Origin: an uncultured Parcubacteria group bacterium
GTDB taxonomy: Bacteria; Patescibacteriota; Patescibacteriia; UBA9934; CAMTUG01
Assembly (NCBI GenBank): GCA_947084965.1
Contig: CAMTUG010000003.1
Location: 360 to 64,359 of the forward strand
DNA length: 64,000 bases
Direction of reading: 5' to 3'
Part shown: piece by piece, positions 4,116 to 20,793 of the stretch
How the letters are laid out: each line of letters opens with the position of its first letter
Position numbering within the stretch: position 1 is the first letter of the stretch
Translations under genes and position numbers: made by a program
Notes under the pieces: model-generated
What the model was told of the DNA's origin: nothing
The model's input: the letters and a program-made list of their open reading frames with translations, nothing else
Databases searched by the model: none

Positions 4116-4613
4116 TTAACTTAGTTCGTTACCGCACTCTAAATAAAGACATGTTTTTCTTCGCATCGCTTTGAGACACTTTGGGAGCCGATGAGCCAGG
4201 CGCGGATTCAACACTTTTAGTGCTCGCTTCGTCGTTACAAAAGCAAACTCTGCGTGTTCTGCTGGATCAAGTTTAATCCGTTTAATCTGTGCATCTGTCA
4301 AACGCCCACCATTAAAGATAAATTGAAACGAATCATCTTTGATAACTTTATCTGTGACTCCTTTGTAATCTACGCATAATAAATTCCCGAGACGTTTAAT
4401 CTTCAGACCAAGCTCTTCCTTGATCTCACGTATACATGCTTCAGTCGGGGATTCACCTTCGTCCACAATACCGCCAGGGATGATCCACCCGTCACGATAC
4501 GTCGTTTTTAAAATCAACACCCGCCCTTGTCGATCAAAAAACAGGACCCCTGAACCGCTTGGCTTGCGGTGCAGGCTTCTGAAGTATTGCGCATACGGCA
4601 GAATCTTTTTCAT
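4116..4613 (-). CDS. NUDIX hydrolase
   Basis: Nudix box GGIVDEGESPTEACIREIKEELG. The start is taken at the internal Met (MKKILPY) so that it abuts the upstream NUDIX gene. Confidence 0.7.
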   Translation of the reverse strand: MKKILPYAQYFRSLHRKPSGSGVLFFDRQGRVLILKTTYRDGWIIPGGIVDEGESPTEACIREIKEELGLKIKRLGNLLCVDYKGVTDKVIKDDSFQFIFNGGRLTDAQIKRIKLDPAEHAEFAFVTTKRALKVLNPRLAHRLPKCLKAMRRKTCLYLECGNELS

Positions 4614-5032
4614 ACTTCGGCGAGCAAAGCTCCCATCCCCGCTTGGAGGACGTGACCATCTTTTAGCGGAATCCAGAAACATTCGAAACGGGTCGGGGGG
4701 TGCTGACCATCATGTTGCTCCTCGCTCGACCAGCGTTCTGGAAGCTCGGCGGTTGGTCGTACTAGAAAGAAATGACGTTCGTGGATTTCGTCACGGCTCG
4801 GGGCCATGTTGTACATTGCGGTTCCGACTTCGCGCACGATTTCGAAGCAATCACGCCCCGTTTCCTCGATGAGTTCTCGCAATGCTGCAGCTTCGATCAA
4901 TTCCCCGTCTCGGACGGAACCTCCTGGCACCTGAATCCCCACCTGTTCATAGGAGAAATCAACATGCCGCAAGACGAGCAGCTCGTCATCCTTCACAACA
5001 TAGACCAAAACTTTTAATTTGATCTCCGCCAC
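4610..5032 (-). CDS. NUDIX hydrolase
   Basis: Nudix box GGSVRDGELIEAAALRELIEETG. Confidence 0.75.
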   Translation of the reverse strand: MAEIKLKVLVYVVKDDELLVLRHVDFSYEQVGIQVPGGSVRDGELIEAAALRELIEETGRDCFEIVREVGTAMYNMAPSRDEIHERHFFLVRPTAELPERWSSEEQHDGQHPPTRFECFWIPLKDGHVLQAGMGALLAEV

Positions 5033-5305: not shown

Positions 5306-5391
5306 TGGTGCTGGGGGGGAGAATCGAACTCCCACGACCTTGCGGTCACATGGTTCTAAACCATGCGTGGCTACCATTACACCACCCCAGC
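5306..5391 (-). tRNA. tRNA-Leu (anticodon UAG), CCA encoded
   Basis: Minus-strand cloverleaf: acceptor gctgggg/ccccagc, anticodon stem catgg/ccatg with loop tttagaa, long variable arm gacc-gcaa-ggtc, T-arm gggag-ttcgatt-ctccc, then A-CCA. Confidence 0.7.
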
Positions 5392-6039
5392 TTGCAACAA
5401 AAGAATTCTACTTGCGATCTCCCGCTTTCTTGGGAGGAAGTACTTTACATCATCATAATACATCGACTTTAGCAAACTTAATGAATCTTTATTACCAAAA
5501 CACAGATAATAGCAAAATTCCCCAGAATGACATTTTGATGAGCTGATCCAGCCGCGGTTAATCTGAAAGATTGTCTTTATCTTTCCGTGGATCCACTCCA
5601 GAAAGTCACGACTAGCCGACGCAAGCCTCAGACGAATTTGAGGACGGGTGGTCTCCGGATGACTAAATGTTCCGATGGTGCCATCTCCATCGATGCATCC
5701 ACGAAAGAAATCAACGAAGTAATCATCTGGAACCTGGACTGATTTGAGCTTCCTCGACTTAGCAGCCATTAATCCAATGGACGTTAGAAATTTATAAAAA
5801 TTCTTGTCTCCGAACTGAACAATAAAATATCTTTTCTCGGTTTCTCCACCGCGGACTCTCCGACCAATAGCATTATCGAGATTGAGACATCGCTTAAAAG
5901 TCCTTGCCAATTCTCCATCCTTTGAAACGAATACTATATGCCTGCCGTCGGTCGATAAATTTCCATCAGACGTGATTAACCCAATTGCATATGCCAATTC
6001 AGGTCCCCAGTTGATGTTAACTTTAGATCTTCGTTTCAT
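5377..6039 (-). CDS. LAGLIDADG homing endonuclease (two-motif, single chain)
   Basis: Motifs LAYAIGLITSDGNL and FFRGCIDGDGTIG. The last 5 codons and the TAA stop lie inside the tRNA-Leu 5' acceptor stem and D-arm. Confidence 0.8.
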   Translation of the reverse strand: MKRRSKVNINWGPELAYAIGLITSDGNLSTDGRHIVFVSKDGELARTFKRCLNLDNAIGRRVRGGETEKRYFIVQFGDKNFYKFLTSIGLMAAKSRKLKSVQVPDDYFVDFFRGCIDGDGTIGTFSHPETTRPQIRLRLASASRDFLEWIHGKIKTIFQINRGWISSSKCHSGEFCYYLCFGNKDSLSLLKSMYYDDVKYFLPRKREIASRILLLQAGVV

Positions 6040-6155
6040 GTCTTCGTTTTTACAGATACAAGGTCATTTTAGCAGAAAAGACAGGTGACATAAAGGGGGA
6101 GAAAGCGATCTTTGAATCACCAATCCTTTCTGTCAAGCATCAATCCACAGATCAA

Positions 6156-6236
6156 TGTCAGCGCGTTCTGACAAACGCACTTCTGTCAGAAATACCTGAC
6201 AAAACCGTTGACAAAGATGCTTTTTTGCGATACGAT
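6156..6236 (+). promoter_or_regulatory. putative promoter (TTGACA-17-TACGAT) preceded by two TGTCAG-N6-CTGACA palindromes
   Basis: tgtcagcgcgttctgaca at 6156-6173 and tgtcagaaatacctgaca at 6184-6201. ttgaca at 6208-6213 is followed by a 17-nt spacer and tacgat at 6231-6236. Confidence 0.4.
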
Positions 6237-6450
6237 GGACTGTACATTAAATTGATTTCATGGAGGCAATGTACAACAGAGGAAGAACAAAACGGCCACC
6301 AACAAACAGGTGCACGACCCGGCAAAATCCGCCACACGTGCGCAACAATCAAGCTCGCAAAAACCATCTCACTCGCCAATCGGCGGGTGAGATTGTTTGT
6401 TGTCACGAACGTGTGACAATCCGCGCGCCGCCGCATCAAACGTTGTATCA

Positions 6451-8868
6451 ATGGAAACTAATTCAGAACGTATGAAGCAACAGAAAAAACTGAGCGAGAT
6501 CTTTTCCTGGATCCTCCTCGCAACGATGGTGCTTCCAAGACAAGCCTTAGCAGAAGAAGCGCCACGGGTGGTGATCAGTGAAGTGAACTGGGGCGGATCC
6601 GTCACAAGTAACGCGGACGAGTGGCTCGAACTGCAAAACCTCTGGGAGGAGGCGATCGACCTATCCAGCTGGTCGATCGAAGGAGCAGGTGCGAGTGGCG
6701 GCACAATCATTTTGCCAGAAGGTGCGGTGATCGAACCGTACGGCACATATCTCATCAGCAACTATGCATCGAGTGATTCCACCCTTGCCGTCGCCCCAAA
6801 CTACGTCACCACGAACGTCTCGTTATCCAATTCCGCACTGCGCCTTGTGTTACGCGCTGGAAACGGGGAGGTGGTTGACGAGGCGGGTGACGGAGGACGG
6901 CCCATGGCCGGATCCAGTCCAGGAAGCGGAGATAGCGGAACGGGCGGAGCTTCAATGATCAGAACTTCGGACGGTTGGGAGACAGCGGCCACGTCGATCG
7001 GATTCGATGACGGGGTGGAACAACTTGGCACGCCTGGCGTCGGCGATCTCCCAGTAACACGCACCATCGTCGAACCAGAACCGGAAGTTGTGACGGAAGA
7101 AACGCCTGCCACGGAAGAAGTTACTCTATCTGATGATCTTGATACGGCGGAAGAACTATCTCTGATCGAAGATGAAGTTCCAGACGCGGAGGAGCCTATT
7201 GCCGAGGAGACTTCAGCCGATGAAGAAACACCAGAATCCGTTGATGAACCTGAGGTGCTCACACCTGCGAGCTACACACGCGGCACTCTGATCATCAACG
7301 AAGTCTTCCCTGCTCCAACGGAAGGGAATGAATGGGTCGAGATCTATAATCCCTTTAACAACGTGATCCCACTTGAAGGATGGCAGTTGATCGAGGGAGG
7401 CGGAACAAAAGTTACCCTCAGGGGCTACCTCGGCTTTGGACAGTTCACGACCTTTGAGTTCGTCAGTCGGTTGAACAACAGCGGCGACACCGTGCGGCTT
7501 GTTGATCCAACAGGGGCGACGATCGATACCCTCACCTACGGTAAAGAGGTAAAGTCCGGGATGTCGGCCGCACGCGATGATGAAGGCCGCGTCGTGGCCA
7601 CGCTGACACCGACGCGCTACTCGGCAAACGTCATTACGGTGGAAGTTGTCGAGGTAAAAGAGGAGGCGGCAAAGGAAGTGAAAGTCGAAAAGAAAGCGAC
7701 TTCCGAGGAAGTTCTAGAAACAGCAAAGTCTGGACCGACAACGCTGTGGATCATCTCCCTTCTCCCTAACCCGAACGGAGCGGATGAGGAACTCGAAGAG
7801 ATTATCATCGAGAACTTTGGCGATGATCCGGTTCCTCTCGCCGACTGGATCCTGACGGACAGCGCAACCGCCTACAAACTCGTCGGCGAACTCGGGCCCG
7901 GACTCAAACTCATCCTGCCACGACCAACCACACGCATTGCTCTTAACAATACGTCGGACACACTTTCCCTCAACGCACCGAGTGGTGAGGTGATCGACAC
8001 CATTACCTATGAAGACCCAAGCGAAGACGCTCACTATGCTCGAAGTGATGAAGGATGGACGTGGACGGGAATACCTACGCCAGCTGAACCAGAAGATGTT
8101 TCGGACCCTGCCTGTGAAGGAACTGCTCCAGAGGGAGCTCGGGCAAATTCGATAACGACCACGCCCACAACGCGCACCAAAAAGAGCTCCCAAGCCACTG
8201 CCGTATTTGAAGGAGTGGTGATCGCCCCACCAGGCATCTTTGGCACCCAGGTTATGTACGGTGACGGGCTCCAGCTCTACCAGTACAACGGGGACTTTCC
8301 GATCCTCTCCGTCGGTGACGTTGTCCGGGCGCGCGGCACGCCAAGTACAAATCACGGTGAGGGTCGACTCAAACTATCGAGCGCTGATGACCTCACGGTG
8401 ATCGGTCACGAAGAGGTCGAGGCCACAGAGCAGACTCTCAACGACCTCACCGCGTTCGTCGGTCGACTCATCGTCGTCGAAGGGATGATCGTGGGACGCG
8501 CGAGCGATCGGTTTACGATCGAACAGGACGGCGCTGAGCTCGTCGTGATCGCCAAGGAATCGACCGAAATCTCACTCAATGGATTGACGATCGGGCAAGC
8601 GGTGCGCATCACCGGGGTGCTCTCGAGCTATGACGGCAAGCTGCGATTGCTCCCCCGTTTCCAAACAGACGTCGTTAACACCGTCGAACAGGAGGCGACA
8701 ACTACGTCAGCCGGAACGATCGAAGAACCAACGACACCTGCCTCGCCTCTGCGCCCGATCGGGATCGGGCTCGTCGGGTCAACCACCCTCGCCCTCGCCT
8801 GGCGCTGGATCGCTTTCCACCGCAAACAACGGATCGCCAAACTCGTCCCTCAACCCAACATCGCTTAG
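6451..8868 (+). CDS. surface protein with three lamin-tail domains (LTD), N-terminal signal peptide and C-terminal TM anchor
   Basis: Three LTD-like units (VISEVNWGG...EWLELQN; INEVFPAPTEGNEWVEIYNP; ISLLPNPNGADEELEEIIIEN). Signal peptide MKQQKKLSEIFSWILLATMVLP and a C-terminal hydrophobic helix followed by FHRKQR. The start may be 6451 or 6472. Confidence 0.7.
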   Translation: METNSERMKQQKKLSEIFSWILLATMVLPRQALAEEAPRVVISEVNWGGSVTSNADEWLELQNLWEEAIDLSSWSIEGAGASGGTIILPEGAVIEPYGTYLISNYASSDSTLAVAPNYVTTNVSLSNSALRLVLRAGNGEVVDEAGDGGRPMAGSSPGSGDSGTGGASMIRTSDGWETAATSIGFDDGVEQLGTPGVGDLPVTRTIVEPEPEVVTEETPATEEVTLSDDLDTAEELSLIEDEVPDAEEPIAEETSADEETPESVDEPEVLTPASYTRGTLIINEVFPAPTEGNEWVEIYNPFNNVIPLEGWQLIEGGGTKVTLRGYLGFGQFTTFEFVSRLNNSGDTVRLVDPTGATIDTLTYGKEVKSGMSAARDDEGRVVATLTPTRYSANVITVEVVEVKEEAAKEVKVEKKATSEEVLETAKSGPTTLWIISLLPNPNGADEELEEIIIENFGDDPVPLADWILTDSATAYKLVGELGPGLKLILPRPTTRIALNNTSDTLSLNAPSGEVIDTITYEDPSEDAHYARSDEGWTWTGIPTPAEPEDVSDPACEGTAPEGARANSITTTPTTRTKKSSQATAVFEGVVIAPPGIFGTQVMYGDGLQLYQYNGDFPILSVGDVVRARGTPSTNHGEGRLKLSSADDLTVIGHEEVEATEQTLNDLTAFVGRLIVVEGMIVGRASDRFTIEQDGAELVVIAKESTEISLNGLTIGQAVRITGVLSSYDGKLRLLPRFQTDVVNTVEQEATTTSAGTIEEPTTPASPLRPIGIGLVGSTTLALAWRWIAFHRKQRIAKLVPQPNIA

Positions 8869-19241: not shown

Positions 19242-19250
19242 TATGAATGA

Positions 19251-19280
19251 AAAAAACCGAGCGCTTGCTCGGTTTTTTTC
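19251..19280. terminator. bidirectional rho-independent terminator
   Basis: aaaaaaccgagcg-cttg-ctcggttttttt. Confidence 0.75.
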
Positions 19281-19281
19281 A

Positions 19282-19371
19282 TGGCGGAGAGGGAGGGATT
19301 CGAACCCTCGATACCCTTGCGGGTATGCGGCTTTTCGAGAGCCGTCGTTTCGACCACTCACGCACCTCTCC
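19282..19371 (-). tRNA. tRNA-Ser (anticodon CGA), CCA encoded
   Basis: Minus strand: ggagagg acceptor, anticodon loop ctcgaaa, long variable arm, T-arm gagggttcgaatccctc, then cctctcc-g-cca. Confidence 0.75.
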
Positions 19372-20359
19372 TTGTTGTGACGAAATTATTATAACGACAG
19401 ATATGCTTTGGATTATCTGACCCTATTTCGTCGAAGAACTTTTTCACATCTTGCTGTCGCCTCAGAAACACGGAATGTTGTGTCACCTTGTATGAAGGCT
19501 TGAACCCTAATCGTCGAAGCGTAGTAAAGATATCTTGAAGGAACTCCGGCGCATGACTAGTAATCGTCAGCCCGATGTGCGCGTAAAGTTTATGCTTTAT
19601 TTGGTGTTTGTCAAGGAACACGCAACCGTCCGTATCGAATAGTCCTCGAAGGAACGCCCGCTCGAATGACGGCTTGGCGTGAACCCATTCTGGAATACAT
19701 AATCCGTTATCGATCTTCTTTCCTTTTGGAACCCCGAGAGTACGGAGATGCTCAACCATCTGTTTTGAAGAAAACAAAACGAGTGTTGATTTCTCGCCTG
19801 AACGCGATCTGACGGATGCCTTAACCGAAAACAACTCCTCTCCAAGTTCTGCAACAAACTTGGCATGGTCTCCGTCCGTTTCAGAGTTTGTGACCATGAG
19901 AACTTGGTACCTAGCCAGATGACCGTCACCCGCAATAATTCCGACAAACTCTGCCAAGGCCTCGTTCTTCATGGGCATTGAGACTTGTTTCTTCAACCTA
20001 AACCCAGTTTTCAAATTTCGTTGAGCCGCAACCGATTGTAATCCGCCCTTTCGCCGACCTTCCGGAGTACCAAGATCACCATACAATTCCGCCCGGCGTT
20101 GTGCGCCCTTCCTGGCCGCGCCCTGAATATGCCAATAGTCATCAAGATACGTTGGTTGAAATGATTCTGGCTTTTTGTTGACTATAGCAGCAAGCACACG
20201 GAACGCTTCTTCTGAAATCAGATACTTACCTCGCTTCCAATCGCGCATCGTTCGTTCACACACGCCAGCCAACTCACTGAGTTGATGGCAATTAAAACCA
20301 CGCTCCTTCAACTTTCGAAACAGCTCTGTTCGCAAGGTGTCTGATAGTTTGATGCGCAT
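19358..20359 (-). CDS. LAGLIDADG homing endonuclease with N-terminal helix-turn-helix domain
   Basis: Motifs LAEFVGIIAGDGHL and FLRGLFDTDGCV, with an N-terminal HTH (LSELAGVCERTMRDW). The last 4 codons and the TGA stop lie inside the tRNA-Ser 5' end. Confidence 0.8.
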   Translation of the reverse strand: MRIKLSDTLRTELFRKLKERGFNCHQLSELAGVCERTMRDWKRGKYLISEEAFRVLAAIVNKKPESFQPTYLDDYWHIQGAARKGAQRRAELYGDLGTPEGRRKGGLQSVAAQRNLKTGFRLKKQVSMPMKNEALAEFVGIIAGDGHLARYQVLMVTNSETDGDHAKFVAELGEELFSVKASVRSRSGEKSTLVLFSSKQMVEHLRTLGVPKGKKIDNGLCIPEWVHAKPSFERAFLRGLFDTDGCVFLDKHQIKHKLYAHIGLTITSHAPEFLQDIFTTLRRLGFKPSYKVTQHSVFLRRQQDVKKFFDEIGSDNPKHICRYNNFVTTRRGA

Positions 20360-20373
20360 GATACAAATGTATC
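20360..20373. promoter_or_regulatory. perfect 14-bp palindrome GATACAAATGTATC abutting the endonuclease start codon (candidate operator)
   Basis: Read directly; immediately 5' of the ATG at 20359. Confidence 0.4.
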
Positions 20374-20541
20374 ATTTCGTAGCAGTCCTAACTATCTACT
20401 ATGCCACCTCTCCGTATATACAAAACGATGTCATGATATACTTTTATTATTACATCTAACCCACACATGTATGGCCAAGGGAAACAATGCCCAGAGCAAG
20501 AACAAGAATAAGAAGAAGCCGAAGCAGAACAAAAAGAAGTA

Positions 20542-20793
20542 ATGGCTTCTTGGACTGTCTACATTCTGAAGTGCGGCGACGGATCGCTCTACACCGGGAT
20601 CACTAACGATCTCGAGAAGCGAATCGAAAAACATAACGCTGGCACCGGCGCCAAGTACACGCGGTCGCGATTGCCCGTCCGCCTCGCCTGGTCCGAATCG
20701 GTCGAGAGCGAAAGCGCAGCCAAAGTGCGGGAGGCGCAGATCAAACGTCTGCCGCGGAACAAAAAATTATCCCTGGTAAAAGCGGCCCCTTAG
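20542..20793 (+). CDS. GIY-YIG nuclease-domain protein (YhbQ/UPF0213-like)
   Basis: WTVYILKCGDGSLYTGITNDLEKRIEKHN. Confidence 0.7.
   Translation: MASWTVYILKCGDGSLYTGITNDLEKRIEKHNAGTGAKYTRSRLPVRLAWSESVESESAAKVREAQIKRLPRNKKLSLVKAAP

Follow-up and report, generated by a model that had tools for sequence, protein, structure and literature searches.

In the 64,000-nucleotide (nt) stretch of an uncultured Parcubacteria group bacterium analyzed here (contig CAMTUG010000003.1; hereafter the window), two free-standing LAGLIDADG homing-endonuclease genes, designated open reading frame (ORF) 1 and ORF2, were found to run with their 3' ends into the 5' ends of intact genes for tRNA-Leu(UAG) and tRNA-Ser(CGA), respectively. 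Comparison with their homologues revealed that members of the ORF1 family accompany tRNA-Leu(UAG), or tRNA-Leu(GAG) in one sub-clade, and those of the ORF2 family tRNA-Ser(CGA). We consider it probable that each locus represents a site-specific homing cassette lodged in the 5' leader of a single tRNA gene, co-transcribed with this tRNA and freed from it by RNase P.

As summarized in Table 1, both genes overlap the tRNA on the same strand. ORF1 ends with ...LLLQAGVV-TAA, and its stop codon (5377-5379) coincides with positions 13-15 of the tRNA-Leu, the 5' end of which is position 5391. A preliminary description of the window had noted an overlap of about 15 nt at this locus and a recurrence of the same geometry with a tRNA-Ser at 19358-20359; ARAGORN, Rfam and the ORF list agreed on the former, and the latter was confirmed with an overlap of 14 nt (19358-19371), in which ORF2 reads ...RRGA-TGA with the TGA inside the tRNA-Ser. 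The portion of ORF1 encoded by the tRNA amounts to four codons (A G V V) plus the stop, rather than the last five codons as had been counted. The ...AGVV-TAA junction was also present in the closest relative of ORF1, L171 (L-numbers are our designations of individual loci). Both tRNAs were uninterrupted and complete, with no match to RF00028; neither group I/II introns nor other Rfam families were found in the two regions at the gathering threshold or at E<=1, where only tRNAs and chance sub-threshold matches appeared. No host protein reading frame was present on the flanks of ORF1 or ORF2, and both are free-standing genes, outside an intron or intein. Across the whole 64-kb window, no further LAGLIDADG family member was detected.

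Table 1. Features of the two endonuclease-tRNA loci in the window
Feature	Position	Strand	Source
tRNA-Leu(UAG), intact type II, CCA encoded	5306..5391	-	ARAGORN; Rfam RF00005, 56.1 bits, model positions 1-71
ORF1, gene for a 220-aa monomeric double-motif LAGLIDADG endonuclease	5377..6039	-	ORF list, Pfam
15-nt overlap, ORF1 3' end (codons A G V V + stop) = tRNA-Leu positions 1-15, gctggggtggtgTAA	5377..5391	-	read from sequence
Intergenic region upstream of ORF1	6040..6396	-	sequence reading
Hairpin resembling an intrinsic terminator (CCGAGC-AAGC-GCTCGG, then T7) right behind tRNA-Ser, at the end of the ORF2-tRNA unit	19250..19279	-	sequence reading
tRNA-Ser(CGA), intact type II	19282..19371	-	ARAGORN; Rfam, 53.9 bits, model positions 1-71
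ORF2, 333 aa, N-terminal helix-turn-helix-like region followed by double-motif LAGLIDADG core	19358..20359	-	ORF list, Pfam
TG-extended -10-like box TG-A-TACATT (20366-20374), then 6 nt, then ORF2 ATG	20360..20374	-	sequence reading
Degenerate copy of the tRNA-Ser(CGA) 5' half, reaching from GGAGAGGTG in the acceptor strand to CGAAA in the anticodon loop, just upstream of ORF2	20375..20413	-	local alignment

The ORF1 family comprises more than 1000 homologues at 50-60% identity. Those with a source name were metagenome-assembled genomes of the Patescibacteria group (Harrison-, Lipton-, Yanofsky-, Kaiser- and Niyogibacteria), and Nomura-, Magasanik- and Peribacteria also appeared among the record titles of ORF1 relatives; in species-representative genomes, a relative was encoded at 387 loci. 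In all DNA fetched, 111 ORF1-family ORFs were directly followed by tRNA-Leu(UAG) on the same strand and 3 by tRNA-Leu(GAG), the latter forming a sub-clade (L071, L072 and L078). When the non-redundant loci having a same-strand tRNA-Leu within ~100 nt of the ORF end were considered, the stop codon lay inside the tRNA in 91 of 110 (83%), the commonest overlaps being those of 10 nt, where U8-A9-G10 serves as TAG, and of 24 nt. The conserved C-terminus of the family, RK-x-x-x-A-x-x-F/Y-L, stops within one codon of tRNA +1, and the residues beyond it (GE, RV, GRVAELV, AGVV and others) are translated tRNA. Translated tRNA 5' sequence was indeed recognized as the C-terminal tail (e.g., GRVAELV, GEVPKWS and GPMVKR) of hundreds of database homologues.

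Likewise, tRNA-Ser(CGA) was the neighbour of all 11 ORF2-family ORFs in the fetched DNA, a family with ~300 homologues. Eight independent loci all abut this tRNA with overlaps of 0 to 67 nt (1 nt in the relative L173), the stop codon lies inside it in 7/8 non-redundant loci, window included, and the tails GEVPKWS, GGVA and ...SGHNGAVSKTAV are translated tRNA-Ser. A third LAGLIDADG_3 family, with ~720 homologues and no member in the window, carries the tails GPMVKR, GPVVKG or GPVAK and reads 18-21 nt into tRNA-Cys(GCA) (L153, 136-951; L174, 1201-1932; L175, 1201-1929), which is the first gene of a Cys-Leu(UAA)-Lys-Leu(UAG) cluster downstream of infB-rbfA. The homologue numbers of these three tRNA-linked families contradict the initial assumption that free-standing LAGLIDADG genes are uncommon, at least as far as this lineage is concerned. 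Nor are ORF1 and ORF2 two copies of one gene, as had been supposed: upon alignment, the two endonucleases shared 26% identity, and they are distant paralogues from two distinct families, each specific for its own tRNA.

An artefact or coincidence, namely a frameshift, an assembly error or an over-extended ORF whose true end precedes the tRNA, would be compatible with the wide range of the ORF1-family overlap (-84 to +98 nt among relatives) and with the tRNA-encoded C-terminal residues not being conserved as protein. Against this, the conserved protein core ends a few nt from tRNA +1 in independent assemblies from many projects, the geometry is repeated in those 91 ORF1-family loci and in all 8 other ORF2-family loci, and it occurs again in the third family on tRNA-Cys. 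The comparative data thus effectively refute such an origin, to which we attach hardly any probability; a sequencing frameshift, which the preliminary description had weighed as the cause of the overlap, is excluded because members of the family normally read into the tRNA. The ORF-tRNA overlap is not a matter of chance, which it exceeds by far.

Beside these families, a degenerate LAGLIDADG ORF without the second motif was observed directly 3' of tRNA-Leu(UAA) in L037 (4119-4748, minus strand), its frame opening inside the tRNA; possibly, this ORF is what decay has left of a further lineage linked to a tRNA.

The encoded proteins showed the hallmarks of LAGLIDADG endonucleases. Both matched Pfam LAGLIDADG_3 above the curated cut-off (ORF1, E 3.6e-9; ORF2, E 9.6e-12). 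The motifs of ORF1, already described as intact, read GLITSDG and GCIDGDG with the acidic residue kept in each, D25 and D119 being invariant in an alignment of 20 diverse homologues, and those of ORF2 read GIIAGDG and GLFDTDG. For each tRNA-linked family, the top 120 members were inspected, and both catalytic acidic residues were kept in 116/120, 114/120 and 114/120 of them (ORF2 family, 114/120), which fits active nucleases under purifying selection. An active enzyme of this type would be predicted to make a site-specific double-strand cut in a long target of about 20 bp. In a comparison of the ORF1 family profile with the PDB, a single solved structure was matched, that of I-Tsp061I (2dch, E 1.3e-8), an archaeal endonuclease from a 16S rRNA intron. 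Sequence and fold thus agree with the two alpha-beta-beta-alpha-beta-beta-alpha domains of the monomeric type. A confident AlphaFold model built for ORF1 (predicted local distance difference test score, 90.8) gave I-Tsp061I as the best Foldseek match and WhiA as the second, followed by intein endonuclease domains, bI3 maturase and I-DmoI. The Pfam match to WhiA remained below the cut-off (14.6 vs 23.2 bits). On some ORF2 homologues, precomputed helix-turn-helix Pfam domains (PF01381 or PF13384) were noted. The proteins are ordinary LAGLIDADG_3 members, and the elements behave like free-standing homing endonuclease genes.

Occupied and empty alleles were then compared for the ORF1 family. A metagenome scan with one 27-nt tRNA-Leu(UAG) 5' sequence yielded 80 contigs, 3 of which were too short to classify; behind this same 5' end, the endonuclease gene was present in 42 contigs and absent in 35. 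The preliminary description had envisaged that an endonuclease-free allele might never be encountered at the tRNA-Leu locus, which did not prove to be the case. Viral contigs scanned with the tRNA 5' pattern gave no match. The tRNA cluster Cys-Leu(UAA)-Lys-Leu(UAG) is common to both states, and the spacer between tRNA-Lys and tRNA-Leu measures 37-63 nt in empty vs 646-734 nt in occupied alleles. The full-length tRNA-Leu is identical across some occupied and empty alleles, no alignment column separating the two states, and immunity by way of tRNA sequence variation was ruled out on this ground. In a pair of sister samples, the occupied L082 and the empty L135 were 100% identical over 954 nt upstream and diverged from tRNA-Lys onward.

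In addition, various decay products were recognized: truncated or frameshifted endonuclease copies (L104, L130, L142 and L143), empty alleles with 3' ORF footprints (L081/L093, L084 and L154), and loci in which the cassette promoter was kept and the ORF lost (L128 and L152). Virgin alleles possess ordinary TTGTCA-17-TATAAT promoters situated 8-13 nt from tRNA +1. Taken together, presence/absence and decay correspond to the pattern of invasion, degeneration and loss expected of a selfish homing endonuclease gene, and mobility appears to be the best reading of the 42 occupied and 35 empty alleles.

As a separate observation on this cluster, tRNA-Lys(CUU) occurs in either orientation beside tRNA-Leu(UAG), and its orientation can differ even where two contigs are 100% identical as far as tRNA-Leu(UAA) (L082 vs L135; L081-L160 generally). 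These flips point to inversions of single tRNAs or to the endonuclease locus being a recombination boundary, although a chimeric assembly is also possible.

A second line of evidence was obtained from the region upstream of the endonuclease genes. A 29-mer consensus, ATTGGCAGACGCTATATGKTTTAGTATAAT, was anchored in 50/80 genome-derived ORF1-family loci, with the ATG usually 6 nt after its TATAAT. This element reads as a near-consensus sigma-70 promoter (TTGGCA, 17 nt, TATAAT), and the TTGGCA/TATAAT pair was by far the dominant promoter-like site of the unit, present in 67/107 loci under strict criteria. The 17-nt spacer was 70-100% conserved, while the proteins are only about 50% identical. The 29-mer was at the same time revealed to be a degenerate 5' half of tRNA-Leu(UAG), extending from the D loop to anticodon G36: a tRNA-Leu 5'-half profile matched the element in 48/79 loci vs 3/790 shuffles, and in L029, L043, L055, L016 and L028 the similarity continued into the D stem and also the acceptor strand (E 2e-6 to 5e-4). 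The anticodon triplet of this pseudo-half matches that of the cognate tRNA, the Leu(GAG) clade (L071, L072 and L078) having CTTGAG. The pseudo-half is mostly of a type foreign to the host's own tRNA (e.g., L029, L055 and L171), which argues for its travelling with the cassette. ORF2-type pseudo-halves were also found in L161, L164, L170 and L173, and the Ser family shows the same design as the Leu family.

In the window, only -10-like boxes were recognized. For ORF2, the pseudo-half aligned with positions 1-40 of tRNA-Ser with a local alignment score of 22, which was reached by 19/5000 shuffles; its -10-like box was not listed by the promoter scan because the -35 is weak. The spacing of -10 box, ~6 nt and ATG is shared by ORF2 with its family relatives, and since the ATG sits only ~6 nt after the -10 box, a leaderless mRNA may be inferred from this geometry, for ORF2 as for the families in general. 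Upstream of ORF1, sequence reading yielded a weaker TG-extended -10-like site, TGCTAAAAT, at 6066-6074, 26 nt before the ATG, at which position the promoter scan listed no site. Alignment of the ORF1 upstream region with the tRNA-Leu 5' half and with the family promoter consensus was no better than that of shuffles, and its resemblance to the remnant in L171 is one seen by eye only. ORF2 appears to display the full cassette architecture, and ORF1 the ORF-tRNA junction with an upstream element that has apparently diverged beyond recognition.

The same upstream region of ORF1 contains the palindrome TGTCAG-N6-CTGACA in two copies 28 nt apart (6156-6203), between ORF1 and a divergent lamin-tail-domain gene (6397-8868), and this motif was likewise observed upstream of the endonuclease gene in L171. 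The palindromes probably constitute an operator for some regulator.

The strong conservation of the pseudo-half and the covariation of its anticodon with the cognate tRNA suggest that the protein recognizes the segment from D loop to anticodon. Two candidate cleavage targets may accordingly be named, this segment and the leader/tRNA +1 junction. Each family is tied to one tRNA gene. The proposal of the preliminary description that tRNA 5' ends are the homing site is one possibility only, since the pseudo-half carried family-wide, and upstream of ORF2 in the window, suggests an alternative or ancestral target between D loop and anticodon. On one reading, the pseudo-half would be an operator mimicking the homing site, as described for I-TevI; what counts against this idea is that autorepression would also throttle the tRNA. 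On another reading, it would be the relic of an ancestral anticodon-loop insertion or intron.

The latter reading can be extended to a different account of the whole cassette, in which the cut is made inside the tRNA near positions 36-38, the mobile unit consists of linker, ORF and a new copy of tRNA positions 1-36, the upstream pseudo-half is the displaced 5' half of the resident tRNA, and the ORF-tRNA overlap is a tight junction inside the cassette; as a variant, the cassette would descend from an endonuclease-bearing anticodon-loop intron that lost its ribozyme. In its favour, the end of the pseudo-half falls precisely within the anticodon loop in both the Leu (...CTTAG|TATAAT) and the Ser family (...CGAAA|TGA), which are unrelated; its anticodon matches the cognate tRNA, CTTGAG of the Leu(GAG) clade included, it occupies the place of the tRNA in the empty allele, following the same leader motif TTTCAAC, and in a few lineages (e.g., L028 and L040) it resembles the host's own tRNA type; moreover, anticodon loops are the classic home of endonuclease-bearing tRNA introns (PMC13011429). 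This account is, however, hard to reconcile with a pseudo-half that follows a consensus of its own throughout the family, that mostly differs in type from the tRNA of the host (L029, L055, L016 and L171), and that at no locus was fresh and identical to the resident tRNA. The occupied allele would also keep an intact cleavable site, the tRNAs of both states being identical, and no intron ribozyme was detectable. A 3' pseudo-half downstream of the tRNA would be expected if a whole tRNA had travelled with the cassette, but it was not systematic, as 109 loci gave 1 to 5 weak matches that are probably neighbouring tRNAs. We therefore regard an anticodon-loop insertion as unlikely. An integrase-type island in a tRNA gene was also considered and rejected, as the endonuclease-tRNA unit contains no integrase gene, it is the 5' half that is duplicated and not the 3' part, which would serve as attachment sites in such an island, and no systematic 3' pseudo-half exists.

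A domesticated WhiA-like DNA-binding regulator was also weighed, which would bind the pseudo-tRNA element in its own promoter, control the ORF-tRNA operon and be inherited vertically with sporadic loss and no current mobility. The conservation of the promoter spacer relative to the proteins (~50% identity) suggests a protein-binding site, the ORF2 family has an extra N-terminal helix-turn-helix region, WhiA was the second-best structural match, and the synteny with infB-rbfA and the tRNA-Cys-Leu-Lys-Leu cluster is widely conserved; I-TevI provides a precedent, as this endonuclease is also an autorepressor acting on an operator that resembles its homing site (PMC2988022). On the other hand, both catalytic acidic residues, which WhiA and maturases typically lose, are kept in >=95% of members, the gene is present or absent beside identical tRNAs and 100%-identical flanks, pseudogenes in place and deletion derivatives exist, and the foreign-type pseudo-halves indicate horizontal movement; repression of the promoter would furthermore throttle an essential tRNA. 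A regulator of this kind seems to us quite unlikely, and identity of the proteins with WhiA-like factors was rejected on the basis of the catalytic residues, the patchy distribution with empty alleles and the sub-cut-off Pfam score.

The homing cassette in the tRNA leader, which we favour, would operate as follows. In the typical cassette, the first part is a putative strong sigma-70 promoter with -35, spacer and flank all belonging to the degenerate pseudo-half of the cognate tRNA; TTGGCA comes from its D loop, and TATAAT follows directly after the anticodon. The second part is the endonuclease ORF, starting ~6 nt after the -10 box and, without a stop codon of its own, reading on to the first in-frame stop of the tRNA. 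Since the ORF abuts or overlaps the tRNA, there is no space for a terminator between the two, nor for a conserved promoter, and co-transcription with release by RNase P is the most likely arrangement; co-transcription with 3' processing dependent on the tRNA, one of the alternatives put forward initially, is thus plausible. In the occupied allele, the tRNA would be transcribed from the cassette promoter within an ORF-tRNA precursor and freed by RNase P, so that the insertion would be neutral for tRNA function, rendered harmless as self-splicing renders an intron harmless. In 83% of loci, the RNase P cut would strip the ORF of its stop codon, and only unprocessed transcripts would release protein; rescue of the non-stop mRNA would limit endonuclease output, so that the cassette could itself keep the nuclease dosage low. 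Upon insertion, the resident promoter is displaced and decays, and the essential tRNA would then depend on the cassette promoter, favouring retention of at least the latter. Such dependence would explain the promoter-only derivatives mentioned above (L128 and L152). The cassette would spread by double-strand-break repair into endonuclease-free alleles, followed by decay and loss.

Several observations weigh against this mechanism or parts of it. Endonucleases from hosts with identical tRNAs ranged from 56% to 100% identity, some being only 56-58% identical; the latter fit either repeated invasion or long vertical residence, and this divergence was discarded as uninformative for distinguishing vertical from horizontal inheritance. 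A recognition site wholly inside the tRNA would give no self-immunity because the tRNA genes of occupied and empty alleles are identical; the leader/tRNA junction is the only sequence unique to the empty allele, and the leaders of virgin alleles are not conserved. The ORF1 of the window itself has no detectable family promoter or pseudo-tRNA element. A minority of ORF1-family members lie 3' of the tRNA or are convergent or divergent, so that the leader position is not obligatory, most of these 11 exceptions still adjoining tRNA-Leu(UAG). Removal of the stop codon by RNase P is not essential either, since the ORF ends before the tRNA in 19/110 loci. Finally, a promoter-like match was found somewhere in the last 120 nt of the ORF in 34/107 loci and may represent an internal tRNA promoter; the matches were scattered, many stem from conserved Tyr-Tyr-Asp codons, and no positionally conserved promoter was detected in the ORF 3' end among the 107 loci. 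With regard to these codons, TATTATGAT makes a -10-like box ~50 nt upstream of tRNA +1 in about a tenth of ORF1-family loci (e.g., L007, L103 and L114; window 5455-5460), which might serve the tRNA as an embedded promoter or merely reflect codon usage by accident.

A wider proposal joins these elements, and we put it forward tentatively, holding it possible though somewhat doubtful as a whole: the tRNA 5' leader would serve as a third silent harbour for homing endonuclease genes beside introns and inteins, where RNase P performs the excision, the missing stop codon caps the dosage via non-stop mRNA, and the pseudo-half acts both as an addiction promoter and as an operator mimicking the homing site, in at least three Patescibacteria families, on Leu(UAG)/Leu(GAG), Ser(CGA) and Cys(GCA).

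With respect to the neighbourhood of the two loci, tRNA-Leu(UAG) is followed, only 25 nt downstream and on the same strand, by a pair of neighbouring NUDIX hydrolase genes that overlap each other and by a membrane-like ORF of 80 aa (4116-5032, minus strand), and the endonuclease-tRNA-Leu unit may for this reason head a longer operon. NUDIX genes also adjoin ORF2-family members in L168 and L173. The hairpin closing the ORF2-tRNA unit (Table 1) was not listed by a consensus terminator scan. A stand-alone GIY-YIG protein of 83 aa (20542-20793, plus strand; Pfam E 2.6e-18) is encoded divergently ~180 nt from the ORF2 start, two nuclease-family genes thereby flanking one intergenic region.

Homing endonuclease genes are thought to persist in self-splicing introns and inteins or between phage genes. 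The loci described here suggest a further strategy in cellular genomes, namely to sit in the leader of an essential tRNA and to have the insertion removed by the universal tRNA 5'-processing enzyme. If this is true, it would explain many Patescibacteria LAGLIDADG genes that are unannotated or called 'hypothetical', offer a natural setting for competition among translation, processing by RNase P and rescue of non-stop mRNA on a single transcript, and provide new monomeric meganucleases targeting conserved regions of tRNA genes. Genome annotation would benefit as well, since gene callers routinely report these ORFs with tRNA-encoded tails, and the conserved pseudo-tRNA promoter poses a concrete, testable puzzle concerning target recognition and self-immunity.

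In the literature, of which our coverage was incomplete so that an earlier description is possible, neither LAGLIDADG genes abutting tRNA 5' ends in Patescibacteria nor the combination of large families per tRNA identity, ORFs ending inside the tRNA and a pseudo 5' half promoter was found described; these large tRNA-linked nuclease families are apparently undescribed so far. A survey of rRNA insertions in the candidate phyla radiation (CPR) leaves tRNA unmentioned (PMC11270868), and a study of tRNA introns, Patescibacteria included, describes HNH, PD-(D/E)XK and LAGLIDADG (PF03161) genes inside introns and reports none upstream of tRNA-Leu(UAG), tRNA-Ser(CGA) or tRNA-Cys (PMC13011429). The LAGLIDADG genes in CPR rRNA insertions share with the present cassettes the host phylum and a site-specific persistence at one conserved RNA gene (PMC11270868), and the archaeal intron-encoded monomeric enzymes I-Tsp061I, the closest solved structure, and I-DmoI share the fold and the Pfam family. 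Unlike such intron- or rRNA-insertion-borne genes, ORF1 and ORF2 are not embedded, the RNA gene is uninterrupted, and excision by RNase P at the tRNA 5' end is proposed in place of splicing. In common with group I tRNA introns, the cassettes have a tRNA gene as their home and a pseudo-half breaking in the anticodon loop, where those introns sit; they differ in that no ribozyme was detected and the tRNA is intact, and the pseudo 5' half ending in the anticodon loop is the only hint at a group I intron ancestry.

The housekeeping gene secG is known to carry a stop codon of its own. In Escherichia coli, the mRNA-tRNA co-transcript secG-leuU is processed by RNase P (PMC2241853), and here too a protein gene lies directly upstream of a tRNA-Leu, with RNase P proposed to generate the tRNA 5' end. 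In contrast to secG-leuU, the stop codon lies inside the tRNA, and processing would yield a non-stop mRNA. I-TevI represses itself via an operator that overlaps its own promoter and resembles the homing site (PMC2988022); in a similar manner, a sequence resembling the presumed target, tRNA D loop to anticodon, fills the interval from -35 to -10 as a putative operator. It differs from the I-TevI case in that repression would also lower an essential tRNA and in that the element is derived from a tRNA half and is not a short mimic. The nearest analogue would seem to be SegB, a free-standing endonuclease in the tRNA gene cluster of phage T4 that takes part in the intronless homing of T-even phages (PMC2988022, PMC2330249). 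As with SegB, the gene lies outside an intron or intein, is found among or beside tRNA genes and is passed on together with a flanking conserved gene, and it would have a promoter of its own; embedded promoters favour the retention of T4 endonuclease genes (PMC2988022), and in the present cassettes, too, an embedded promoter would make deletion costly to the host. SegB is, however, a GIY-YIG enzyme in a phage, whereas the ORF1 and ORF2 families are predicted LAGLIDADG_3 enzymes in cellular Patescibacteria genomes. Unlike SegB, their ORFs usually run into the tRNA without a stop codon of their own, a given family keeps to a single tRNA identity in many different host lineages, and the cassette carries a pseudo 5' tRNA half.

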